Shown in pieces: positions 224-12,446 of a stretch of DNA of 18,949 nucleotides; positions within the stretch are counted from its first letter, which is position 1, and each line of letters starts with the position of its first letter. The stretch spans positions 1-18,949 of the forward strand of contig JAWXCN010000109.1 of the NCBI GenBank assembly GCA_034408725.1, written 5' to 3'. The position numbers and the translations under genes are program-made. Below the pieces are notes generated by a model. That model made no database searches, had not been told where the DNA came from, and saw nothing but the letters and a program-made list of their open reading frames with translations. This DNA comes from Candidatus Hydrogenedentota bacterium (GTDB taxonomy: Bacteria > Hydrogenedentota > Hydrogenedentia > Hydrogenedentales > SLHB01).

Positions 224-2557
224 ATGTCCAGCGATTCCTATCAAAAGCCTTTGGATGACCCGTGGCCAGTGTCTGGTGACGCGCCTGCGGTTGTCATTCC
301 CGAGGATGAACCTCCAACTAACGTGAGCCCGGCTATGCTTGCCGCGTTGGCGGCCTTTGTTGGCGTGCTCGTATATTTGCTTTTCCACCTCGGGAACGGT
401 TTGGCGTTTGGCCCGTGGCAGGGGGCGTATCTGGATGCAGCGTTCCCCTATCGCGCGCCGTTAATTTCGCTTTGGACCGGGCGCGCGGTGGCGGCAATTC
501 CGTTTGGCGATGCGGCGCGGAGGTTGTCGTTTGCATCCGTGATGTTGGGGGCGCTTGCATGCGCGATGTTGGCGCTGATGGCGGCGCGCGCATTGGGTGC
601 CCGGCCCGGGGGGATTACGGCGGCGTGCGGGGGCGTGGGCGCGGGCTTGCTGTTTGCACTGACGCCGGCGTGGTCCAACGCGGTCGCGAGCAATTCGCCG
701 GCAATGGTAACGGTCCTGCTGTCGCTGATCGGCCTTGCATTTGTTCAGCACGCGATCGAAACACGTACCGCGGGCTGGCTTGCGTATGGAGGATTGGCAA
801 TCGGGTTCGCCACGGCGAATGATCCATCGTTCGCAATACTTTTTGTGATCGCGCTGTTGGCGGCGCTTGGGACGCTGGGCGAGCGTATATCGGTCGCGCG
901 CGTGTTTGCGCCTTTGCTGTGCGGTTTTGCGGCGCCGGTGCTTGTGCCGTTTGCGCGCTCGCTGGTGTTAGGCGAAGGGTTGGACGGTTTTCTAGCGCAC
1001 GCGATGGCGACGGCTTATCCCACGATTGGCGACGGCGTGCCCCGGCTGGGGTTTGGCCTGGAACTCCGCCCGCAATTTTCCTGGGTCATGCTTGGCGCTA
1101 CCCTTGCCGGCATGACGGCCTTGTTTACACCGGGCATGCGCGGCGCCGCAACTACGTGGGCATTGTTGTTCCTGGCGATGGGGCCTTTTTGGCCGATGCT
1201 TACGAACCAACGGAGTTCGGCATACGTCTTACGGGACACGGATGCAGCGACTTCGATTGCAAGCGCGGCGGTGTGCATTGGCGCGGTTTGGGGTTTGGCG
1301 TGGCTGGCGCGAGTTCTTGCGCGGCGGGACCGTGGCGCAACGATCACAGCGTTAATGGCGTGCGGCGTTGCCATTATGGTTGGCGTGCAATACGCCGCGC
1401 TACCCAAGCGGGACGCGGCTCGCGCGGATGCGCTTGCGCGGAGTATTTTTGCGGACTCCGGAACTAACGCGGTAATCGTTACGGGTGACGCGCGAACGAC
1501 TTCGCTGTTGCGGACTATCCAACTTGCGCGCGGCGTGCGACGTGACCTCGCCGTGGTTTCTGTTCATGCGCTCGAACAACCCGAATGGCGCGCTCGGCTC
1601 GCCGCAACGTACCGGGACGAACTGCGCGTCGTCACGGACTTCCCGCCGGACAACGCGTGGACGCGGTGGCCCGTGGAGCGCCCCAACGAGTTCGGTCTGC
1701 TCAACGCCACACTTCGGGACGGCGGGTTGCAGGAAGGCGATTTTCGCGATCTGCTGCTATGGGAATTCATGCGGGACAACTTTTCGGCGCGGCCAATCCT
1801 TTTCGCGGGCGTAACGTCGGCGTGGCTAACCGCGCGCGGCAAGCCCGTGGGGATGCTGTTGGCTTATCCGCGCGAGGGCGCTGGTGAGGGGAATGCGCTG
1901 GCGCTGGTGACAGCCGCTGGCGCGTTCGACACGGACCAGGAGATGGCCGCGACCAACCTGAGTCTGTTGCTACCCCTCGCGGAAGCGAGCAGACGGCAAA
2001 ACGATGTGCCCCAGGCGGAAAAGCTCGCCGCATTGGCGCGCGAAAATGGGCCAAATAACGCGGGCGCGTGGCTTTCCTCGGCACGAGCGGCGGCGCGGGG
2101 CGGCCGGCGCGAGCAGGCGGTGGCGTTTTCGGCGCGCTATCTTCGCATGGCGAACAATCCACGCGAAATGAAAGACTTCTTGGGGCTGATCGAGGAGGAC
2201 TTGCAGCGGAACGCCCTGGCGGTGGAATTCAGCACGGCGGCAATTCAAACCGAGGTGAACGATGCCACGCGCATGCGGCGCGACCAACTTGCGGAAATGC
2301 TTTGGGGACTGGACGAGTTGTCCGTGCTTGCCACGGGCTACGACGTGGCAATGCAAATTGGTCCTGGAGATTTTGAACTACTTTATGAGCGCGCGGCGGT
2401 AAACGCACAACTGGGCGAGCTGGACATCGCGCGCGCATTGGTTGGCGAAGCGGTGAAGGTAGACTTTCAGAAAGTGTGGTCTCGCATGCAATGGGACGGG
2501 CGTTTTTACCTTCTTGAAGTGAAGCGGCCCGAGTTTACTCCCGGGACGCGGGGGTAG
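224..2557 (+). CDS. DUF2723/TMEM260-like multi-pass membrane protein (GT-C-like) with C-terminal TPR-like helical region
   Basis: 777-aa ORF with SD. Many hydrophobic segments in aa ~35-390. 'IPFGDAARRLSFASVMLGALA', 'LLFALTPAWS' and 'NAVIVTGDARTTSLLRTIQLARGVRRDLAVVS' resemble DUF2723-family segments. Ala-rich helical repeats in the C-terminal third. Confidence 0.6.
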   Translation: MSSDSYQKPLDDPWPVSGDAPAVVIPEDEPPTNVSPAMLAALAAFVGVLVYLLFHLGNGLAFGPWQGAYLDAAFPYRAPLISLWTGRAVAAIPFGDAARRLSFASVMLGALACAMLALMAARALGARPGGITAACGGVGAGLLFALTPAWSNAVASNSPAMVTVLLSLIGLAFVQHAIETRTAGWLAYGGLAIGFATANDPSFAILFVIALLAALGTLGERISVARVFAPLLCGFAAPVLVPFARSLVLGEGLDGFLAHAMATAYPTIGDGVPRLGFGLELRPQFSWVMLGATLAGMTALFTPGMRGAATTWALLFLAMGPFWPMLTNQRSSAYVLRDTDAATSIASAAVCIGAVWGLAWLARVLARRDRGATITALMACGVAIMVGVQYAALPKRDAARADALARSIFADSGTNAVIVTGDARTTSLLRTIQLARGVRRDLAVVSVHALEQPEWRARLAATYRDELRVVTDFPPDNAWTRWPVERPNEFGLLNATLRDGGLQEGDFRDLLLWEFMRDNFSARPILFAGVTSAWLTARGKPVGMLLAYPREGAGEGNALALVTAAGAFDTDQEMAATNLSLLLPLAEASRRQNDVPQAEKLAALARENGPNNAGAWLSSARAAARGGRREQAVAFSARYLRMANNPREMKDFLGLIEEDLQRNALAVEFSTAAIQTEVNDATRMRRDQLAEMLWGLDELSVLATGYDVAMQIGPGDFELLYERAAVNAQLGELDIARALVGEAVKVDFQKVWSRMQWDGRFYLLEVKRPEFTPGTRG

Positions 2558-2581
2558 AGCAGCGCGCGCTGCACCGTAACC

Positions 2582-4120
2582 ATGCACGAAACCCACGACA
2601 CCACGGTGCGCGCGACGGTGCGGTATGTGGGCGCAGCGTTTGCCGGTTGGCAGGTTCAACCCGCCCAACGCACGGTGCAGGGCGTCATTGAATCCGCACT
2701 GGCCCGGATAGCGGGAAAACCTATACGCGTGCATGGCGCCGGACGCACGGACGCCGGCGTGCATGCCCTCGCGCAGGTCATGTCGTTTCACTGGGATGCC
2801 AGGACGGACCTGGACAAACTCGGCCGGTCGTTGTCCAAAATGCTCGCGCCGGATGTGCTGGTTTCTGAACTCGCGATTGCGCCGCGCGATTTTCATGCGC
2901 GCAAATCCGCGACTGGCAAGGTGTACGCATATACATTCTCGACTGCGCGCGATCCCGATCCGTTTACCGCGCCGTTCGCATGGACGGCCCCGAACGGCGT
3001 GGACCTGGAGCGGTTGCGGAGTTTGTGCGCGCAATTCGAGGGCAAGCTCGATTTCGCGGCGTTCCAGTGCGCGGGGGTCGAGAAAGAATCCACCGTCCGA
3101 ACACTATTTTCCGTCCAGGTGGCCCCCGGCGGCGTAATCGCGCCGTCCGACGCAGCGGGCCTATACCACATCACGTTTCACGGCGACGGATTCCTGTACA
3201 AAATGGTGCGCAACATTACCGGCACTCTCATTGACGTTGCCCGCGGCCATCTGCCCGAATCGCGCATCAATGAGATGCTCGCTTCGCCGGGTCCGTACCG
3301 GGGATTTACCGCCCCCGCGCTGGGTCTAGCGCTGGTGCGCGTCGAGTATGGGGCGCATGCGCCACCGCAGTATTCGCTTCAAAGCGTGCAGCGGTACGAA
3401 TGGGTTTTCGGAGAGAATTTTTTGAGTTCCAGCGGCGCGGACGTCGCCCGCGTTGGCGCTGCGATGTTAAAACTTGCTCCGGGACTGCGGGTGCTTGATG
3501 TTGGAAGCGGATTGGGCGGTGCGGCGTTCCACTTCGCGGAAGCCCACGGCGCGCATGTTACGGGTTTCGATGTGTTGGAAAGCATGACGGTAGAGGCGCG
3601 GGCGCGCGCGGACCGGCGATCATGCGCGCTGGTGGAATTCGAGACGGGCGATGTGCTGGCGGCGCCTATCGCGCCAAACTCGTTCGATGCCGTGTACAGC
3701 AAGGATTCATTTCTGCATATCGCGGACAAGCGCGCGTTGGCGGCGCGCTTGTTTCGAATCCTGAAACCGGGAGGCAGGTTGTTCTTCGCAGATTACCTTC
3801 GCGGGCCGCATACATCCTGCGCGGAATTTGAAGACTATGTTTCGGAATCGGGTTACCATTTGGCCACCGAAATGGAATACCGGGCGTTGCTCGAGGAAAC
3901 GGGGTTTGAAGAAGTCGCCCACGCGAATCTGACCACCGATCTGCGCGCGCTGTTGCTGGCGGATATTGCGCGCATCGAGTCACAGGAGGCCGGCGGGGTG
4001 ATCGGGGGCGCGGACCGGGAGTATCTCGCGGACCGGTGGCGCCTGAAAATCCGGTGTTGCGACGCCAACGCGATGCGGTGGGGTTGGTTCTCCGCGCACA
4101 AGCCAATGGCGGCGAGTTGA
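2582..4120 (+). CDS. truA: tRNA pseudouridine(38-40) synthase TruA fused to a C-terminal class I SAM methyltransferase (phosphoethanolamine N-methyltransferase-like)
   Basis: aa 1-256 carry TruA motifs FAGWQVQ, TVQG, GAGRTDAGVHA (catalytic Asp at 2750-2752), FHAR, GFLYKMVRNITG and TAPALGL..VEY. aa 263-512 carry QY...RYEWVFG, VLDVGSGLGG (SAM motif I), YSKDSFLHI and LKPGGRLFFADY. Confidence 0.9.
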   Translation: MHETHDTTVRATVRYVGAAFAGWQVQPAQRTVQGVIESALARIAGKPIRVHGAGRTDAGVHALAQVMSFHWDARTDLDKLGRSLSKMLAPDVLVSELAIAPRDFHARKSATGKVYAYTFSTARDPDPFTAPFAWTAPNGVDLERLRSLCAQFEGKLDFAAFQCAGVEKESTVRTLFSVQVAPGGVIAPSDAAGLYHITFHGDGFLYKMVRNITGTLIDVARGHLPESRINEMLASPGPYRGFTAPALGLALVRVEYGAHAPPQYSLQSVQRYEWVFGENFLSSSGADVARVGAAMLKLAPGLRVLDVGSGLGGAAFHFAEAHGAHVTGFDVLESMTVEARARADRRSCALVEFETGDVLAAPIAPNSFDAVYSKDSFLHIADKRALAARLFRILKPGGRLFFADYLRGPHTSCAEFEDYVSESGYHLATEMEYRALLEETGFEEVAHANLTTDLRALLLADIARIESQEAGGVIGGADREYLADRWRLKIRCCDANAMRWGWFSAHKPMAAS

Positions 4121-4241
4121 GACGGTGAATGGAGGCGAGGGGATGTACCCCGTGATCGATTGATTCCGGCCGCGGCACAATTTAGACTGGCCTGAATCAA
4201 TCCCCGGCCCCAACCGGCATTGCGCGATGCGCGGAGGACCC

Positions 4242-4790
4242 ATGAGCAAAGTACTTGTACCCCTTGCAGATGGCTTGGAAGAAATCGAAGCAATTACGAT
4301 CATCGATCTGCTACGGCGCGCGGAAATTGACGTCGTCACCGCATCCTTGACCGGTGACACCGTGAAAGGAAGTCACGGCATCGTCATTACCGCTGACACA
4401 ACCCTCGACGTCGCCTTGAATAGCGACTATGACATGGTCGTACTGCCCGGCGGCATGCCCGGCGCCGAGCACCTCGACCAGGACAAGCGCGTGCACGCGT
4501 TGCTGCACAAGATGGCCGACAGCGGGAAATTCACCGGCGCGATCTGTGCCGCGCCGAAAGTGCTCGCAAACGCCGGCCTCCTCAATGGCAAGAAGGCAAC
4601 GAGTTACCCCGGGTTTGTCGACAAAATGAACCTGCCCGGCGTGACTTACACCGGCGCTCCCGTGCAATGCGACGGTAAAATCATCACTGGACGCGGCCCT
4701 GGCGCGGCAATGGACTTTACCCTGTCATTGATCGAAGCGCTCGACGGCAAAGAAAAACGCAATAGCGTCGAGAAAGCCCTCATGCGATAG
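4242..4790 (+). CDS. yajL: DJ-1/PfpI family protein (YajL/ThiJ-type glyoxalase III/deglycase)
   Basis: Motifs LADGLEEIEA (catalytic Glu), VVLPGGMPGA, GAICAAP (nucleophile Cys) and ITGRGPG. Start moved to ATG 4242, which follows GGAGG at 4233-4237. Confidence 0.9.
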   Translation: MSKVLVPLADGLEEIEAITIIDLLRRAEIDVVTASLTGDTVKGSHGIVITADTTLDVALNSDYDMVVLPGGMPGAEHLDQDKRVHALLHKMADSGKFTGAICAAPKVLANAGLLNGKKATSYPGFVDKMNLPGVTYTGAPVQCDGKIITGRGPGAAMDFTLSLIEALDGKEKRNSVEKALMR

Positions 4791-4873
4791 CGGTTTCCGA
4801 ACCGGCTGCAAACGGGCAACAAGTTAAATTTGAGATTGAACGGAAACTCTTTGTTTGGCGAGGAAAAGCATTC

Positions 4874-5338
4874 ATGCCAAAATCAAAATCACACGTCCCC
4901 GACGGCTTCCAGGCTGTCGTCCCTTATTTTCACCTCGACGGCGCGGCCCGCTTCCTCGAATTTCTCACGAAAGCATTCGGCGCGGAGGAAACCTTTCGCT
5001 CGCTTACGCCAGACGGCAAGATCATGCACGCAACCGCCCGCATCGGCAACGCAGTCCTCGAAGTGTCTGACGCCACTGCCCAATGGCACGCGATGCCCTG
5101 CGCGATCCATCTCTATCTCCCGGACACGGATGCCGCATACAAAAACGCGCTGAGCGCCGGCGCAACCTCGCTCTACGAACCGACAGACATGTTTTACGGC
5201 GAACGCTCCGGCGGCATCACCGATCCCTTCGGCAACAAATGGTACATTGCCACGCACGTCGAAGACATTCCCGAAGAAGAGATGGAAGAGCGCGCGCAAG
5301 CATACGCAAAAAAACAATCACAGCAACAACAACAATGA
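4874..5338 (+). CDS. VOC (glyoxalase/bleomycin resistance) family protein, PhnB-like
   Basis: Motifs FLTKAFGAEE, DGKIMHA, DMFYGERSGGITDPFGNKWYIATH. Purine-rich SD-like GAGGAAAAG upstream. Confidence 0.9.
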   Translation: MPKSKSHVPDGFQAVVPYFHLDGAARFLEFLTKAFGAEETFRSLTPDGKIMHATARIGNAVLEVSDATAQWHAMPCAIHLYLPDTDAAYKNALSAGATSLYEPTDMFYGERSGGITDPFGNKWYIATHVEDIPEEEMEERAQAYAKKQSQQQQQ

Positions 5339-5400
5339 ACACGAGCACAGAATGTGCCTTTCATCGTTTCCGTGCTCGTCTGTGTTTGTCCGTGTTCATC
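5335..5400. repeat. Small intergenic palindromic element with 10-nt periodic units
   Basis: ATGAACACG (5335-5343) pairs with CGTGTTCAT (5391-5399). ACGAGCAC (5341-5348) pairs with GTGCTCGT (5372-5379). Three tandem decamers TCCGTGCTCG/TCTGTGTTTG/TCCGTGTTCA at 5369-5398. Confidence 0.55.
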
Positions 5401-5416
5401 CAGAAGAATTTATAAT
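5386..5416 (+). promoter_or_regulatory. Putative sigma70 promoter for the TIM-barrel gene
   Basis: Perfect TATAAT at 5411-5416. TTGTCC at 5386-5391 gives a suboptimal 19-nt spacer. SD AGGAG at 5432-5436. Confidence 0.35.
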
Positions 5417-5442
5417 CGCGCCCAAGTGCGCAGGAGACCATA

Positions 5443-6297
5443 ATGTTTTATTCAGGCATCTCCGACGAAGCTGGCAAATCCATCGACACCCAGATCGCCG
5501 CGCATCGCGACCTTGGATGGGACCAATTGGAACTGCGGCTCGTCAACGGCACGAACTTTACCTCCGTGTCCGATGAACTCTCTTGCGAAGTCTACGAAAA
5601 ACTTTCGTCCGAAGGCATGAAAGTTTCCTGCTTCGGCAGCGCGATCGCAAATTGGGCGCGCCCCATCACCTGCGACGCGAATATCGACATCGATGATCTC
5701 GCCCGCGCCATTCCACGTATGCACCGGTTCGGCACGCCATTCATCCGCGTGATGAGTTATCCAAACGATCCCAAGTCACCCATCTCCGAACCCGAATGGC
5801 GCGCTGAAGCCATCAAACGCATAAGAACGCTCGCCAAAATGGCCGAAGACGGCGGCATCATCCTCTGCCACGAGAACTGCAGCGGATGGGGCGGCCTTTC
5901 CGCGGACCACAGCAACATCCTCCTCGGAGAAGTCAACAGCCCCGCGCTTAAAGTAGTGTTCGACACCGGCAACCCGGTCACCTACGGACAAAACTCCTGG
6001 GACTACTATCAGAGCGTGTATAACGACATCGCTTACGTTCATATCAAGGACGCCAAAAAAATCAATGGCGAAGACCAGTACACCTATTGCGGCGAAGGTG
6101 ATGGCAACGTCCCCGAAATTGTGGCCGATCTACTTGCCAGGGGTTACGACGGCGGCTTCTCCATCGAACCCCATCTCGCCGCGATCATCCACACCGGTCA
6201 AAACGCGGACAGCGACGCCGCGCTCTACGATTCGTACACGGAATACGGGCGGCGCTTCATGAAAATCGTCGAGCAAGCGCAAGCGCATAGCGCATAA
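5443..6297 (+). CDS. Sugar phosphate isomerase/epimerase family protein (xylose isomerase-like/AP_endonuc_2 TIM barrel)
   Basis: Metal-ligand motifs CHENC, VFDTGN, VHIKD and SIEPH. N-terminal SGISDEA. Good SD. Confidence 0.88.
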   Translation: MFYSGISDEAGKSIDTQIAAHRDLGWDQLELRLVNGTNFTSVSDELSCEVYEKLSSEGMKVSCFGSAIANWARPITCDANIDIDDLARAIPRMHRFGTPFIRVMSYPNDPKSPISEPEWRAEAIKRIRTLAKMAEDGGIILCHENCSGWGGLSADHSNILLGEVNSPALKVVFDTGNPVTYGQNSWDYYQSVYNDIAYVHIKDAKKINGEDQYTYCGEGDGNVPEIVADLLARGYDGGFSIEPHLAAIIHTGQNADSDAALYDSYTEYGRRFMKIVEQAQAHSA

Positions 6298-6315
6298 AAA
6301 AAGGGAGGCGGCATT

Positions 6316-6489
6316 ATGGCAGTCATGCGATGGACCAAGATTCGCACGTTCTTCGGAGTAGTATTTGCTATCGTCGTACTCGTCGGGTTCGTGGCCATCG
6401 CCGCCGCGCTCTTTAACGTCCGACTTCCCATTCTCGGCGAGATCACCGACGCCGTGGCATCCGCCCGGGAGAATAATCCGATTGAATAA
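6316..6489 (+). CDS. Small (57 aa) single-pass membrane protein, not in the ORF track
   Basis: SD AAGGGAGG (6301-6308), ATG 6316, TAA 6487-6489. Translation MAVMRWTKIRTFFGVVFAIVVLVGFVAIAAALFNVRLPILGEITDAVASARENNPIE has a basic N-terminus and one ~22-aa hydrophobic helix. Lies 18 nt after the upstream stop. Confidence 0.65.
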   Translation: MAVMRWTKIRTFFGVVFAIVVLVGFVAIAAALFNVRLPILGEITDAVASARENNPIE

Positions 6490-6584
6490 GGAGAAGAAGG
6501 TCGACGAGCGCGCTTGTCGTTGTATCCCAAAACATCATTCCCGCGAGCGCCGAATAGCAGAATAGAAATAGTTAATTTTCCATC

Positions 6585-6941
6585 TCACTCTTTTTTGTCA
6601 TTCTTAATCGGCACGCGCAACAATGTGAACAAATTGATGTAGATGTTGGCGATCCACACCAGCGCAAACCCCGCTACCATGTACCCTGCCAATTGCGATA
6701 CAGCATCTGGAAAACGCGTAACAAACAGCACGAAGACCACGATATAGTGGCTAAAACAGTATGGGCATGTGAATAGGTAAAGAAACTTTCGCCCTACCAA
6801 GGTCCTCGCAGCCGCGCTTCGACGTTCGCACCACTCGCGGAACTCTTTGAACAGCTATTCATTCGTTACGGTCCAACTGACTGACGCAACCGGGACCGCC
6901 AAAATCAGCAGCCAACCAATCTGTGAACCGAGTGATAACAC
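6585..6941 (-). pseudogene. Interrupted small membrane protein with CxxC motif (FTCPYCFSHY; DUF1360-like), in-frame TAG at codon 29
   Basis: Frame from GTG 6941 reads MLSLGSQIGWLLILAVPVASVSWTVTNE*LFKEFREWCERRS...RKFLYLFTCPYCFSHY, continuous with the 6585..6800 ORF except for the TAG at 6855-6857. Start codon uncertain. Confidence 0.65.
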
Positions 6942-7030
6942 CTTGATACCGTGACCTAATATTCTGCAAGAAGTCGCCAGACAATGGACTGCCCGTCTGT
7001 CAGGCTATGGATGAATGACGGCCGCTCCGT

Positions 7031-7235
7031 TTAGCGCCTACGATACGCGGGCGGCCGTTTATCGAGGACTACTATTTTGAAATCCGTCTTGGACAGGGCT
7101 TAGGCAAGTAAAGCGCCTGTAATGCCACTGCCGATAATCACTATGTTGCACTGGATATCTTTGGTAAGTTTCCGATATTGGGGGGGGCACGTTTCCCATT
7201 TAGCCAAATAGACTCGCCGGAATGTAAATTTTCAC
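7031..7235 (-). pseudogene. Remnant N-terminus of an FAD-dependent oxidoreductase (DAO/PuuB-like Rossmann fold)
   Basis: Minus strand reads NLHSGESIWLNGKRAPP, then a frameshift in the G8 run (7180-7187), then YRKLTKDIQCNIVIIGSGITGALLA*ALSKTDFKIVVLDKR. GxGxxG at 7115-7132, in-frame TAA at 7100-7102, truncated near 7031. Confidence 0.75.
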
Positions 7236-7262
7236 TTGACAGATAGCTCGCTAAATCCCGGT

Positions 7263-8609
7263 TCAATTCGACGATCTCGTTTCTTCCGATGCCGCGGAAA
7301 AAGGTGCCGCGGTTGGCGCGACCAGGGTGAATCGAAAACCTTGGTCTGGAGCACTATCCAATTCGCTATAACCTCCCAGTAAGTGTAGACGCTCTTGCGT
7401 CGTAAATAGACCGAGCCCTCCCGTCTGATCAGTGGGTTTCAACGCAGGCGTGGTGGAAACGTCAAAGCCGATACCCTCATCTGAAACCATTATTCTAATT
7501 TCATTGCCGTGTTGGCCCACGTCAATTTTTGCGGTGTCTACGCCGGAATGCTTGACGACATTGAAGAGCAGTTCGCGAACACTTTGGAAAAGCAGAATGG
7601 TCAAGTCCTCACGGTACATTGAAATTTGCCCGTTTACGGAGAGTGACACGTCGAGTTTGTGTTTTTCCTTCATCCAGCGGCAAAGCCACTCCAATGCCGG
7701 AATGAGACCTCCTTTACGGAGTATCGGAGGGCTAATCTCGCCCGTAAGGGTCCGTGATATACCGATGCATTCGGAAATCAGACCTCGTACTTCTTCCGCC
7801 AACTCCGCTATCGGTTCGCCGGAGGCGCCCCTGAGCATTTCCGCGCGAAGTTTCGCGGCAACCAGCAATTGTTGCAAAGTATCGTGAAGCGTCAGCGCCA
7901 ACTTCTCGCGCTCCCGCTGCTCCGCCAGTGTAAGCTCTCCCGCAAGGCGTTGAACCTGTATCGTGCGCTCGCGCAGCCGGTTTTCCAGTTGCTCGCGATT
8001 CCGAATTTCTTCTTTTAACCGGTCAACCGTCTTGCTCAGCTCAATGGTGCGTTCGGTAACCCTGCCTTCCAGCGTGCTGTTGACGCGATGTAGCGCATCT
8101 TCGGCCTGCTTGCGCGCGGTGATGTCCGTAAAACACCACACCCGCCCGACGTTCTGGCCATTGACGTATTGGATTCGCGAGTATCGTTCTATGGTTCTTC
8201 CGTCCGTGAGTTCCATCAAATCATAGGTTTCTTCCGGCAAGGTTGCATGAATGGAATTCAGTTTGACTTTGTGATGTTCCGGCAACCCCAGCCGTTCGGT
8301 AATGGATTCCAGCAGCGCTGTATGCGAGATTGATTCCAATTCCTCTGCGCGGAATCCCCACATTTGAATGTAATTCTGGTTGTAACCCGTGACCTTCCAG
8401 TCCCGATTCGTCACCAGAATCGCATCCGTCGTAGACTCAAGCGTTGCGCGCACCATGGCGAGCGAATGATCCAATTCCTTCGTCTTTCGCTCGAGTTCAA
8501 CATTCGCCTGAAGGAGGTCCTCTTCCGCGCGCAGCCGCGCCTGAAGGATGCTGTTGGCGTTCTGCAATGCCGCGGAACGAAGAAGTTTCTCTTCATCTTC
8601 GATATTCAT
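7263..8609 (-). CDS. Cytoplasmic PAS-domain sensor histidine kinase (HisKA_3/NarX-like + HATPase_c)
   Basis: PAS/PAC (ATLESTTDAILV...GRVWCFTDITARKQAE), coiled coil, H-box EREKLALTLHDTLQQLL (His at 7884-7886), N-box ELLFNVVKHSG, G1 DEGIGFD, G2 GGLGL. No transmembrane segment. Confidence 0.92.
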   Translation of the reverse strand: MNIEDEEKLLRSAALQNANSILQARLRAEEDLLQANVELERKTKELDHSLAMVRATLESTTDAILVTNRDWKVTGYNQNYIQMWGFRAEELESISHTALLESITERLGLPEHHKVKLNSIHATLPEETYDLMELTDGRTIERYSRIQYVNGQNVGRVWCFTDITARKQAEDALHRVNSTLEGRVTERTIELSKTVDRLKEEIRNREQLENRLRERTIQVQRLAGELTLAEQREREKLALTLHDTLQQLLVAAKLRAEMLRGASGEPIAELAEEVRGLISECIGISRTLTGEISPPILRKGGLIPALEWLCRWMKEKHKLDVSLSVNGQISMYREDLTILLFQSVRELLFNVVKHSGVDTAKIDVGQHGNEIRIMVSDEGIGFDVSTTPALKPTDQTGGLGLFTTQERLHLLGGYSELDSAPDQGFRFTLVAPTAAPFSAASEETRSSN

Positions 8610-9671
8610 TCACGCGACTCCAAGCGCTTCTGACGCAAGCTCCGTACCGCGGACGCGCGCTCGAATTTTGCCAAAAGCAGTCTCTCGCGTGGTCGATGTA
8701 TCGTCGCAAAACGGAGAAAATCCGCAATCGTCGGTGGTGCCCAACTGATTGACCGGGATAAATTCTGCCGCTTCTAATGTCCTGTCCCGGATTTCCTCGG
8801 CCGTTTCCATCCTCGGATCAATTGGCGAGACCACCCCGACGTACACGCGTTGATACGGCTTTAGGTAGTCGCGAATAATCTTGAGGACGTGCCGCCGATC
8901 TTTCTCGCCCGCGAGGGCGACGTAAAAATTACCGACTTTCAACGCGAACAGACTCGGCAGGAGTTCGGAATAGTCCACTTCCGCGCTATGCGTAGAGTCG
9001 CGATCCCCGCCGGGGCACGTATGAACCCCGATGCGCTGGCGTTCCTGGTCAGAAAATTGCCCGAGGGCGAGATTGTTCAGGTCGATAAAACTATTCAGCA
9101 GCCGGCCCGACGGATCCAGTTTCACCGCCAAACGGCCTTCAGTAAAGTCGATCTGCACTTTGTGCGCGCCTTTATCAAGGCACCTCCTGATTTCCCCCAC
9201 ATGTTCGCCGAGTAAATCCTGAATGAATGCTTCACGCGGATACCCCGGGATTTCATGAGCCGGGTACATCAAACTTAAGGCTGAGGGAGAAATTACGGCC
9301 TGCTTCACGGGAACGCTGGCATACCGAAACGCAACGTCAAGATAACTGTCCGCATAGTTCTTGTACTGGAATGGGCCGGCGGTAAGCTGAGGCATTCGCC
9401 GGACGTGGCCGGCCGCGAATGGAATCTGGAATCCGTCCGGAGTGGTATTTGGCAGCCCTTCCACGCTATATGTCCAAAAATTGTGGTATTTTCGTTGTTC
9501 ACCGTCGGTGATCACGGGTGATCCCGTCGCTTCGAACTGCCCGATTGTGTCCCGAATCGCATCCTCAAACATGCTGTCGAGGTGCGCACCGACCCCGCCG
9601 CTCTCTTCGAGTGCGCGGATCAGCGCGAGGGGCCTTGGAATGCTTCCGATAGGTTCAGTTGGGATAGGCAT
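8610..9671 (-). CDS. Cobalamin-independent methionine synthase II (Meth_synt_2)-like single-barrel Zn-thiol protein
   Basis: Motifs PIGSIPRP, ITDGEQRK, VQIDF, Zn ligands GVHTCPG (9015-9023) and TTDDCGFSP (Cys 8724-8726), METAEEIRDR. About half the length of MetE and lacks the folate-binding barrel. Start is ATG 9671 or GTG 9686. Confidence 0.85.
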   Translation of the reverse strand: MPIPTEPIGSIPRPLALIRALEESGGVGAHLDSMFEDAIRDTIGQFEATGSPVITDGEQRKYHNFWTYSVEGLPNTTPDGFQIPFAAGHVRRMPQLTAGPFQYKNYADSYLDVAFRYASVPVKQAVISPSALSLMYPAHEIPGYPREAFIQDLLGEHVGEIRRCLDKGAHKVQIDFTEGRLAVKLDPSGRLLNSFIDLNNLALGQFSDQERQRIGVHTCPGGDRDSTHSAEVDYSELLPSLFALKVGNFYVALAGEKDRRHVLKIIRDYLKPYQRVYVGVVSPIDPRMETAEEIRDRTLEAAEFIPVNQLGTTDDCGFSPFCDDTSTTRETAFGKIRARVRGTELASEALGVA

Positions 9672-9942
9672 GGGAACGGAACTCACCTCTCACTAATCGC
9701 TCAACAAGCTACAACTAAAGAATATTGCCGGCGAAAAGGTGTAAAGCGCGCAGGATTTTGCAAGTGGAAAATTGATTGTGCCTAGCGAATCTTGCTGAAA
9801 TCAATCCCTCGCCGTTCCTACCTGTAAATACTCCGAATAGGCGCCGTACTCAGCCCAGCACTCCGTGAGAGTTCCACATTAAAGGCGGAATAAAACGTTC
9901 GATGGATGTCTTATATCATCATTCCATCTTAAGGAGTTTGCG

Positions 9943-12129
9943 ATGAAGAAGCTGCGCGGGAAGAAGATTGGGGTCAAGGCTGTCCCTGAAAGTGCGAAAA
10001 TCAAAGAACTTGAGGCCGACAAAGAGCTTGGTGACGGGCAGATATTGACTACAAACCATGGAGTGGGCATCAGCGATAACCAAAACTCCCTGAAGGCGCA
10101 TGAACGCGGTAGCACGCTGATGGAAGATTTTATCCTTCGGGAAAAGATCACCCATTTTGATCACGAGCGCATTCCAGAGCGAATCGTTCATGCTCGCGGG
10201 TCAGCCGCGCATGGATTTTTTCAGGTCTACGAATCCATGCAGAAATACACAAAGGCAAACTTTCTTCAGGACCCTTCCGTGAAGACACCTGTTTTTGTCC
10301 GGTTTTCGACCGTTGCTGGCTCCCGAGGCTCGACCGACCTCGCGCGCGACGTCCGGGGTTTTTCCGTGAAGTTTTACACCGCCGAAGGGAATTACGATTT
10401 CGTGGGAAATAACGTTCCGGTCTTTTTCATCCAGGATGCCATGAAATTTCCTGACTTCGTACATGCAGTGAAGCCTGAACCTCACAATGAAATGCCGCAG
10501 GCAGCGTCGGCCCATGACACTTTTTGGGATTTCATTTCCCTGGTTCCAGAATCCATGCACATGATTATGTGGGTCATGTCAGACCGTGCCATCCCGCGAA
10601 GCTACCGGATGATGGAAGGATTCGGCGTGCACACCTTCCGGTTAATTAACCAAAAAGGTAGTTCTCATTTCGTAAAATTCCATTGGAAGCCGTTGCTGGG
10701 TGTCCACTCTGTTCTATGGGACGAGGCGCTTAAGATTTCGGGTAAAGATCCTGACTTTCACCGGCGTGACTTGTGGGAAGCCATCGAGAATGGCGATTTT
10801 CCGGAATGGGAATTGGGCGTACAGATCGTGCGCGAGGAAGACGAGCATAAGTTTGAGTTCGACTTGCTCGACCCGACCAAAATCATTCCGGAAGAAGTAG
10901 TTCCTGTAAAGCGGATCGGGAAGATGACCCTCAATCGCAATCCCGACAATTTCTTCGCGGAAACGGAGCAGGTAGCTTTTCATCCGGGTCATTTAGTGCC
11001 GGGAATCGACTTTACGAACGATCCGCTGCTGCAAGGCAGGCTGTTTTCCTATACCGACACCCAACTGTCCCGGCTAGGCAGTCCTAACTTCCACGAAATC
11101 CCGATTAACCGGCCGGTATGCCCCGTTCACAACAATCAGCGCGACGGTCACATGCGCCAAACAATCAACCGAGGGCGCGTAAGCTACGAACCCAACACAC
11201 TGGGCGGTGGATGTCCCATGCAGTTGAGCGCGGAAAACGGGGGGTTTTCGAGCTTCCCCGAAAGAGTTGACGGTTCCAAAGTTCGTGACAGAAGCCGAAG
11301 TTTCTTTGACCATTTCAGCCAGGCCGCTCTATTTTATGACAGCCAGTCAGAACCCGAACAGATGCATATTATGAAGGCGCTTCGCTTTGAATTGGGTAAA
11401 GTTGAAACGCAATCCATTCAGGAGCGCATGTTGTTCCTGCTCTCCCGAATCGACAAAAGGCTTGCGGATGACGTCGGCGCCGGAATCGGAGTAAAAGTTC
11501 CTTCAAGCATTGCCGAGCCTCTTAATCAGAGTGTTCCCGCGGACATTCCTGTGAAGGATTACCAACCCTTACCAATACGGAAATCCAACCAAAAATCCGC
11601 GGCGCTAAGTATGGCGAATACAATCTTTAGCGCGAAGACACGCAAAATTGCTGTCCTCGTTGCTGATGGATTCGATGATGTCTCGCTGTCGGCAATGGTT
11701 AAAGCCCTCAAGTCAGAAGGCATTCAAACGAAGATTGTCGCTCCGCACGGCGGCTTCATTGAAGGCATGCGTGGCGGCAAAATCAGAGTGGATTTCAGCT
11801 TTGCAACGATTGGCTCAGTACTTTTTGACGGCGCCTGCATTCCCGGTGGTCAGAAAAGTGTTAAGACGCTTCTTAAATTACCGGAAGCGGTCCTGTTCGT
11901 GAACGAAACATATAAGCATTGCAAGGCCGTTGCCGCATTGGGTGATGGAGCGGAAATTATTCAAGGGGTGCCATGGGGAATCGGAAAGGACTTCGAAGGC
12001 AAAGACAAGGAAGACGGTGTCGTAATCAGCCGGAAAGGCAATGTGAAAACCGTGGCAAGCGGTTTCGTTGCTGCAATCGCGAAACACCGTCACTGGAAAA
12101 GAGAAGCGACCGATAACATTCCCGTGTAA
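9943..12129 (+). CDS. katE: Large-subunit monofunctional heme catalase HPII
   Basis: Distal His motif [32 protein letters not shown], proximal Tyr motif [12 protein letters not shown]-terminal DJ-1/GATase-like domain ([10 protein letters not shown]...YKHCKAV). SD AAGGAG at 9931-9936. Confidence 0.97.
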
Positions 12130-12446
12130 GCGAAAGCGTCCATGCTATTTCGCGCAATGATATTGGCTTGTAACCGGAATAGTTGTGTCACGCGGTATCT
12201 CGGATTATAGTTGACAAATCCAAGGTTAGTGAGTTTACCAGTTGCTTCTTCGCCTTCGTTTCCAACCCTTCGGCGCCCGGTCATACAGCGAACCGGCGCC
12301 AATCCATCTCAAAAGTCATCAATTCATCCGACTATTACGCGAACGTGCCCGGCCCGGGATAAAGGCCTATGTTGCAGGATGCGCCTGAGTCGGTTAGATT
12401 GATGGGTGGCTGGGCCTTAGACTGGCCCACGAGGTTATTGACACAC

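Follow-up and report, generated by a model that had tools for sequence, protein, structure and literature searches.

What connects a protein of the methionine synthase (MetE) fold with a soluble histidine kinase? The question is raised by a gene pair on the minus strand of the 18,949-nucleotide stretch analysed here (the window; contig JAWXCN010000109.1 of assembly GCA_034408725.1, Candidatus Hydrogenedentota bacterium), in which the gene for a single, putatively zinc-binding barrel is directly followed by the gene for a PAS kinase. A preliminary description of this sequence had proposed that the barrel may be an input subunit which docks on a helical arm at the N-terminus of the kinase. We found barrel and arm encoded next to each other in all 80 related loci examined, and a complex between the two was predicted with confidence. 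We consider it fairly probable that the barrel is an enzyme-derived zinc-thiolate ligand-binding subunit that docks on the N-terminal helix of the kinase and feeds it a signal.

The gene pair and its junction

The two genes and the parts of the kinase are located as follows.

8610..9671, minus strand: barrel gene, coding for a Meth_synt_2-like zinc protein of 353 residues with one (beta/alpha)8 barrel (stop codon 8610-8612)
8618..8621, minus strand: GGAG, read from the sequence as the likely ribosome-binding site of the kinase gene, 8 nt 5' of its ATG and within the barrel gene
7263..8609, minus strand: gene for a soluble histidine kinase of 448 residues with arm, PAS, HisKA_3 and HATPase_c (stop codon 7263-7265)
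8493..8600, minus strand: conserved N-terminal arm and predicted docking element, kinase residues 4-39 (EDEEKLLRSAALQNANSILQARLRAEEDL...), from the arm alignment and the co-fold
8100..8456, minus strand: PAS domain, kinase residues 52-170 (Pfam PAS_7 and PAS)
7725..7913, minus strand: HisKA_3 dimerisation/phospho-acceptor domain, kinase residues 233-295 (Pfam, 29.6 bits)
7311..7595, minus strand: HATPase_c catalytic domain, kinase residues 339-433 (Pfam, 44.7 bits)

With a GTG start, as chosen by the lister of open reading frames (ORFs), the barrel ORF would extend over 8610..9686; the ATG at 9671 gives a protein beginning with MPIPTEPIGSIPRP... which has 353 residues and is identical to a database protein. 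The minus-strand junction reads ...cttGGAGtcgcgTGAATGaat. The TGA of the barrel gene (8612-8610) abuts the ATG of the kinase gene (8609-8607) with a gap of zero, and the GGAG at 8621-8618 lies within the upstream gene; both details had been read correctly in the preliminary description.

Conservation of the pair across phyla

One genome per species was scanned for related loci; 524 relatives of the barrel were confirmed, and the best 80 (74-79% identity) were examined. They are from Acidobacteriota, Pseudomonadota, Planctomycetota, Verrucomicrobiota, Myxococcota, Gemmatimonadota, Actinomycetota, Sumerlaeota, and Eisenbacteria, and thus span at least nine phyla. The family is large: relatives of the barrel form more than 8000 clusters in a large protein collection, the best 120 matches being 74-80% identical and 351-366 residues long.

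In 80 of 80 loci the arm motif (LLRSVALQNA...ARQRAE..EL) begins 16-57 nt (median 29) 3' of the barrel stop codon. A same-strand ORF starts at the barrel stop or a few bases from it in 78 of these loci; the contigs of the other two end too early. The start of the kinase gene overlaps the barrel stop by 1 nt in 39 of the 78 and by 4 nt in 21, and 63 show either such an overlap or a zero-gap abutment. The adjacency of barrel and kinase is far beyond chance. The conserved adjacency proposed as a check in the preliminary description is thus present throughout, and the association of the arm with IPTEPIGSIPRP-type proteins that it had suggested held for every one of the 80 loci. When the 787 ORFs of these loci were clustered, no other family occurred in more than three loci, apart from an antisense-ORF artefact over the barrel.

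The partner proteins have little else in common. Among 71 complete partners (70 loci and the window), HATPase_c was detected in 66, PAS in 63, HisKA in 60, a receiver domain in 52, GAF in 27, and HisKA_3 in 8. Their lengths range from 164 to 1221 residues and their architectures vary; what all share is the first ~30 residues.

Barrel and arm also go together when genomes are sampled by phylum. In 135 genomes from the phylum of the window, the arm was found in one and the barrel (E <= 1e-20) in one, both being the genome of the window, and four congeners have neither. In 151 genomes of Acidobacteriota the arm occurs in three, each time with a barrel of 74-77% identity ending 28-58 nt upstream; three others of the same genomes carry barrels of 58-65% identity and no arm. 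The two thus occur together in 4 of the 286 genomes sampled, the other 282 counting as having neither. Five large genomes contain five barrels, with an arm directly after each.

Two further arms (63.6 and 39.8 bits) head hybrid PAS kinases that have no barrel next to them; each of these genomes encodes one barrel at another site. These second arm-bearing kinases are at 2034-4022 of locus L088 (genome G135, 15 kb from its barrel) and at 2032-4533 of locus L089 (genome G138). Because such extra kinases occur in one-barrel genomes, a cell may use a single barrel for several kinases.

Fused barrel-kinase forms were sought among nine long barrel matches, which proved to be fragments, gene-call artefacts, or unrelated fusions, none of them convincing. 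One has a receiver domain and one a Crinkler domain. In protein P0214 (1185 residues), which resembles a eukaryotic gene model, a Crinkler domain comes after a barrel-like N-terminal part. Protein P0379 (240 residues), which matches both PF01717 and the arm, may reflect read-through or a faulty gene call, or may be a fusion of a rare kind.

The kinase and its N-terminal arm

The kinase had been described as a membrane-less PAS-HisKA_3 protein with a helical arm ahead of the PAS domain, and this description stands. Pfam assigns PAS/PAS_7, HisKA_3, and HATPase_c as listed above, and the highest Kyte-Doolittle mean over 19 residues is 0.96, so that no membrane segment is indicated. In a structural model of residues 1-185, a single helix (residues 3-59) enters the PAS fold (63-162) without a flexible linker, the model confidence dipping at residues 41-60.

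Across the partners the arm has the consensus DDEExLLRSVALQNAxSILLARQRAExEL (~30 residues), with a mean column identity of 76% in an alignment of 76 sequences. No Pfam family covers it (residues 1-45) in the window kinase or in the 71 scanned partners. The arm profile has one match in the genome of the window, which is the kinase itself (57.3 bits). When 8000 candidates were scored with a longer arm profile, at least 1869 proteins reached E <= 0.001. PAS kinases, whole or fragmentary, make up nearly all of the 120 matches listed, and one match is an HWE/HisKA_2 kinase. A single-sequence search with residues 1-45 gave only 5 matches, the query being too short for that database.

A predicted complex of barrel and arm

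The preliminary description had suggested co-folding of the barrel with the kinase N-terminus. Three runs were made with the barrel alignment, a zinc ion, and a 36-residue arm alignment, together with three controls. The interaction prediction score from aligned errors (ipSAE) was 0.85, 0.86, and 0.82, against 0.01 for the best control. The runs share at least 95% of their contacts, and the predicted local distance difference test (pLDDT) of the partner is at least 84. In calibration, the score mark was reached by 58 of 80 solved complexes and by 2 of 110 mismatched pairs, a yardstick that holds only roughly here, given that our runs used their own alignments and a zinc ion riding along. The prediction supports binding of the arm by the barrel. 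Intramolecular contacts of full-length MetE may have influenced the co-fold. No solved structure of the barrel family with a kinase peptide is among the structural and sequence matches. The predicted surface maps to the following region.

9069..9431, minus strand: barrel residues 81-201, containing the arm-binding surface predicted by the co-fold (81-82, 133-138, 146-154, 182-201)

On the arm side, the predicted contacts involve alignment columns 3-25, which correspond to kinase residues 6-28, with the invariant Asn17 and Ile21 at their centre. On the barrel side, the contact segments come after the substrate-loop strand (ISPS, 127-130) and after the Asp175 strand. Judged from barrel topology, that is from the order of secondary-structure elements only, they would be at the catalytic face.

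Relatives of the barrel that lack an arm partner differ at this surface. Phe81 is present in 76 of 76 arm-linked barrels and is replaced by V/A/I/L in four arm-less relatives; Leu201 is present in 72 of the 76 and is replaced by K/E/Q/K. In all four, the match to the arm-linked consensus is poorer at interface positions (identity 0.43-0.52) than at the remaining ones (0.53-0.65). Such a divergence would be expected if the surface had been gained together with the partner.

Fold, zinc site, and substrate residues of the barrel

The only Pfam match of the barrel is Meth_synt_2 (PF01717; 24.8 bits against a cut-off of 21, residues 39-323), which is also the precomputed annotation of most of its relatives; ESM Atlas returned the same family name and nothing beyond. 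The AlphaFold model has a mean pLDDT of 92.6 and a predicted template modelling score (pTM) of 0.92. By template modelling (TM) score, the closest folds are Shewanella MesD (3rpd, TM 0.72-0.75) and the C-terminal barrels of MetE from T. maritima, N. crassa, and a plant (TM 0.74-0.77). Identity to the solved structural relatives is 14-23%.

The putative zinc ligands are encoded at two sites.

9015..9023, minus strand: His217-Thr-Cys219, the HxC zinc-ligand motif, which opens the invariant stretch HTCPGGDRDSTHS; aligned to the HxC of 1ypx
8724..8726, minus strand: Cys316 (in TTDDCGFSP), C-terminal zinc ligand; aligned to the CGF motif of 1ypx and 3rpd

By alignment, His217, Cys219, and Cys316 match the MetE zinc ligands His641, Cys643, and Cys726. 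They are invariant in all 76 arm-linked barrels, in agreement with the His-x-Cys...Cys motif noted in the preliminary description. Three substrate residues are kept as well. Price et al. 2021 (PMC7857596) list Ser433, Glu484, and Asp599 among the residues with which MetE binds homocysteine. Their motifs in T. maritima MetE align with Ser10 (GSIPRP), Glu58 (DGEQ), and Asp175 (QIDFTE) of the barrel, which are invariant in 76 of 76 arm-linked barrels and in 4 of 4 arm-less relatives.

The barrel does not score as a known methionine synthase. It is far below the cut-offs of the curated NCBIfam models PRK06520 (48.1 against 313 bits), PRK04326 (47.6 against 406), PRK06233 (34.2 against 576), and PRK09121 (30.3 against 392), and the MetE model TIGR01371 has no match at E <= 0.01. 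A MetE protein has two tandem barrels (~750 residues) and a folate-binding N-terminal domain, and here there is one barrel of 353 residues. The genome of the window also has a full-length MetH-like gene (756.9 bits, below the cut-off of 1010.85 bits) and two other core-MetE-like paralogues, so that the barrel would not be needed as a housekeeping methionine synthase, and such a role is unlikely.

Constraint and descent

Across phyla the arm-linked barrels have a median amino-acid identity of 79%. Recent horizontal spread was considered as the source of this similarity and was rejected, because four-fold degenerate sites are saturated (0.33 observed in pairs with the window against 0.31 expected from composition). 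The high identity indicates that the barrels diverged long ago under an unusually strong constraint. For a protein that is not housekeeping, about 79% identity alongside saturated synonymous sites is out of the ordinary and needs explaining.

The four arm-less relatives are 53-60% identical to the barrel and are from plasmids of Streptomyces, Trichlorobacter lovleyi, and Pseudoalteromonas and from one acidobacterial chromosome. No arm or kinase is encoded alongside; their neighbours are metabolic genes and differ from case to case. They retain all catalytic residues, and their mutual identity is only 48-58%. Those on plasmids of Streptomyces parvus (L090) and of Trichlorobacter lovleyi (pGLOV01; L091) are 58-60% identical to the barrel. 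The former adjoins genes of the carboxymuconolactone-decarboxylase family (AhpD-like), an FAD-binding protein, and a PEP-binding protein, and the latter adjoins NrtS and a 2-oxoacid:ferredoxin oxidoreductase.

A tree of 76 barrels is poorly resolved (10 of 73 inner branches are starred) and follows the phyla only in part: it requires 18 phylum changes, compared with a minimum of 8 and a mean of 34.4 after shuffling. These figures do not amount to clean vertical descent, nor do they prove transfer; taken with the patchy distribution, the tree suggests some transfer. The window barrel is on a long end branch (0.48, median 0.15), and its nearest rows are Burkholderiales and Longimicrobium, not Planctomycetota, with weak support.

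A proposed mechanism and its alternatives

In the reading that we favour, the two genes would form a self-contained, translationally coupled signalling module. The barrel would have descended from an enzyme with the fold of MetE and the core methionine synthases, its zinc site kept, and would bind, and perhaps alkylate, a ligand at that site; from the conserved residues, this is probably a homocysteine-like amino-acid thiol. The first ~30 residues of the kinase would be a helix whose docking site is a hydrophobic patch on the catalytic side of the barrel. This patch would consist of the stretch that follows the substrate loop (133-154) and of the helices beyond the Asp175 strand (182-201). The arm would be the beginning of the long helix that continues into the PAS domain, so that a ligand-dependent movement at the barrel face would be passed along the helix to the PAS and DHp domains and would alter autophosphorylation. 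Of the earlier proposal of an input subunit, the structural part has been borne out by the invariable pairing, by the co-occurrence of barrel and arm and, at the level of prediction, by the co-fold (0.85 against 0.01). From these observations we infer physical binding, the ligand and a flow of information from barrel to kinase, and thus the sensing function. A wider version would have a whole clade of core methionine synthases turned into a dedicated, near-frozen sensor of a homocysteine-like thiol, a methyl donor, or the alkylation state, which plugs into any soluble kinase with the portable ~30-residue helix, one barrel serving several kinases, and which has spread over at least nine phyla as a two-gene unit. 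This version we put forward tentatively, its chances being a little short of even.

Several points weigh against a sensor barrel. The co-fold score expresses the confidence of a model and is not a measurement. Covariation between barrel and arm is weak, with a mean normalised mutual information of 0.209 for interface columns against 0.180 for other columns; it is confounded by relatedness, and most contact columns are invariant and therefore uninformative. The zinc site may differ from that of MetE, because the position aligned to the zinc ligand Glu665 is Ala252 in all 76 arm-linked barrels (Q/E/Q/A in the four arm-less relatives). The fourth ligand is Glu665 in MetE and an Asp in MesB; in the barrel, the site could be completed by Glu256, four residues further on, or by the Asp223/Asp225/His228 loop, all of these residues being invariant. 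As for an output, neither a response regulator in the window nor a conserved neighbour across the 80 loci presents itself. The absence of a response regulator had already been noted; the genome has 68 receiver-domain matches, none of them on the contig of the window, yet 52 of the 71 partner kinases carry a receiver domain of their own. Finally, the retained catalytic residues would suit a working enzyme as well as a sensor.

A working enzyme is what the reverse wiring would assume. Here the barrel would be under the control of the kinase: the PAS and GAF domains would sense some other signal, the arm would act as a lid, pseudo-substrate, or tether on the catalytic face, and enzyme activity would track the state of the kinase. 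The invariance of all catalytic and substrate-binding residues agrees with this, as does the predicted arm site on the catalytic face, where core synthases would presumably meet their methyl-donor partner, and so do the differently built arm-bearing kinases that face a single barrel in one genome. However, the arm is at the extreme N-terminus, the usual input end of histidine kinases, and is continuous with the helix entering the PAS domain, and 66 of 71 partners retain kinase-type outputs that would be superfluous for a mere enzyme regulator. We regard control in this direction as rather unlikely. Distinctly less probable still appears a switch without any amino-acid ligand, in which the Zn-Cys2His site itself senses oxidants or electrophiles: Cys219 and Cys316 would be modified, zinc would be lost, and the grip on the arm would be altered. 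It is known that zinc-thiolate sites serve as redox switches and that MetE is oxidation-sensitive; moreover, the window operon is divergent from a large catalase gene and close to DJ-1/PfpI and glyoxalase genes, and the relative on the Streptomyces plasmid adjoins a gene of the carboxymuconolactone decarboxylase (AhpD-like) family. Yet the catalase, DJ-1, glyoxalase, and TIM-barrel proteins of the window have no match in the 80 related loci (tblastn, 1e-5), so that the local stress-gene context cannot be generalised; clustering gave no conserved neighbour either, and the invariant Ser10/Glu58/Asp175 triad suggests a bound amino acid.

The plainest explanation would be co-transcription without contact, the barrel being an ordinary methionine synthase or thiol methyltransferase and the kinase a member of the same operon that, for example, regulates it. 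The source annotation does name the protein a methionine synthase, and fold and residues of such an enzyme are present. Against this, its best score with a curated methionine synthase model is 48.1 bits where 313 are required, there is no SAM (S-adenosylmethionine) or B12 riboswitch near the operon (Rfam scan, 6200-10000), and a MetH-like gene is present elsewhere in the genome. In the genome samples the 30-residue arm motif is restricted to this barrel clade, and the arm-encoding gene directly follows the barrel stop in 80 of 80 loci, and the co-fold scored 0.85 against 0.01; none of these three would be foreseen under plain co-transcription. We give this explanation very little credence.

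Relation to known systems

H-NOX/HnoK and NosP/NahK are systems in which stand-alone cytoplasmic haem sensors are encoded beside soluble histidine kinases. The pair described here resembles them in having a small sensor-like gene directly 5' of a soluble kinase gene in one operon, an arrangement kept in 80 of 80 loci, and in the expected binding to the kinase and control of its autophosphorylation; one of the weak matches that NCBIfam gives for the kinase core is NahK. It differs in that the candidate sensor is an enzyme-fold zinc barrel instead of a haem protein, and in the portable N-terminal helix of 30 residues, which is carried by kinases with three types of DHp domain (HisKA, HisKA_3, and HWE/HisKA_2). 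The trigger enzymes and co-sensing kinase partners known so far (DctA/DcuB with DcuS, for instance) are either transporters or enzymes with a housekeeping role that they keep. A protein of metabolic ancestry with its active site kept would likewise report substrate state by direct contact; here, in contrast, it belongs to a separate, ultra-conserved clade that is apparently dedicated to kinases, with kinase-less enzyme relatives elsewhere.

With the C-terminal barrel of MetE and with MesA-MesD, the protein shares the (beta/alpha)8 fold, the HxC...C zinc motif, and the equivalents of Ser433, Glu484, and Asp599 (as listed in PMC7857596). The clade is set apart by its own invariant stretches GEQRKYHNFWTY and HTCPGGDRDSTHS, by an identity of 14-23%, by the Ala at the Glu665 position, by the lack of methionine-pathway genes nearby, and by a partner that is a kinase helix and not a folate domain, corrinoid protein, or MesX. 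The kinase, in turn, has the PAS, HisKA_3, and HATPase_c domains of NarL-type sensor kinases, but there is no response regulator near it, its arm is outside Pfam, and HisKA_3 is the minority form among barrel partners (8 of 71).

That a stand-alone sensor or trigger enzyme controls a kinase is a known principle. The apparent novelty is that the barrel fold would act as a sensor, that docking would use a portable helix, and that the module is so widespread and so well conserved. Full-text searches of the literature turned up no article in which a MetE-like protein and a histidine kinase are paired. A statistical co-distribution of phytochromes and methionine synthases, as presented in PMC1552090, is unrelated to the barrel-kinase pairing. 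Because the conserved barrel is always encoded just 5' of an arm-bearing partner gene (80 of 80 loci), our data suggest an undescribed way of wiring a metabolic enzyme into bacterial signalling.

To our knowledge, most soluble PAS histidine kinases have no known signal. A single recognisable, putative input device is shared by kinase proteins numbering at least 1869 and by barrels in more than 8000 clusters. If the barrel is a sensor, one biochemical study could provide the input for a large, phylum-spanning set of orphan kinases from soil and mat bacteria, and the few stand-alone cytoplasmic sensors known for kinases would be joined by a MetE-fold enzyme. For synthetic sensors, the docking helix, being short, would offer a compact and transferable adaptor.

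Genomic surroundings in the window

Upstream of the operon is a region that we presume to contain its promoter.

9672..9942: intergenic region of 271 bp, 5' of the barrel gene, between it and the divergent catalase gene; presumed operon promoter region

A simple scan for the sigma-70 consensus found no promoter-like site in 9672..9942, so that the promoter is placed by position alone, and a simple promoter and terminator scan around the operon was at background level. No Rfam family, riboswitches included, matched 6200-10000 at E <= 0.1. The nine large window ORFs scanned include no met, folate, or cobalamin gene, as had been described before, and no DUF1852 protein (MesX, the partner of MesD), a search confined to these ORFs and not genome-wide. 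The large ORFs other than the pair encode a TruA-methyltransferase fusion, DJ-1/PfpI, glyoxalase, a sugar-isomerase-type TIM barrel, a large catalase, PSCyt/PSD1, DUF1501, and GH94; the PSCyt/PSD1 and DUF1501 genes are of planctomycete type.

Stress-type genes flank the operon: DJ-1/PfpI, glyoxalase, and the sugar-isomerase-type TIM barrel are encoded at 4227-6297, and the large catalase, which has a DJ-1-like C-terminal domain, at 9943-12129, divergent from the operon. Positions 6001-12300, with the catalase gene, the operon, and the adjoining gene-poor stretch, form a block of lower G+C content (0.50-0.54 compared with 0.56-0.64 on either side). This block may be an acquired island; a check of mobile-element borders found no convincing repeats flanking the operon and no mobility genes. 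The ~960 bp 3' of the kinase gene (6300-7262) have no ORF longer than 101 residues and no Rfam match. Within them are two small hydrophobic ORFs resembling membrane peptides (6585-6800, minus strand, 71 residues; 6316-6489, plus strand, 57 residues).

Further away, a 777-residue ORF at 224-2557 (plus strand) matches no Pfam family at E <= 0.001, and a 512-residue ORF at 2582-4120 (plus strand) combines a TruA-type pseudouridine synthase domain with a class I SAM methyltransferase domain, which is an unusual fusion.

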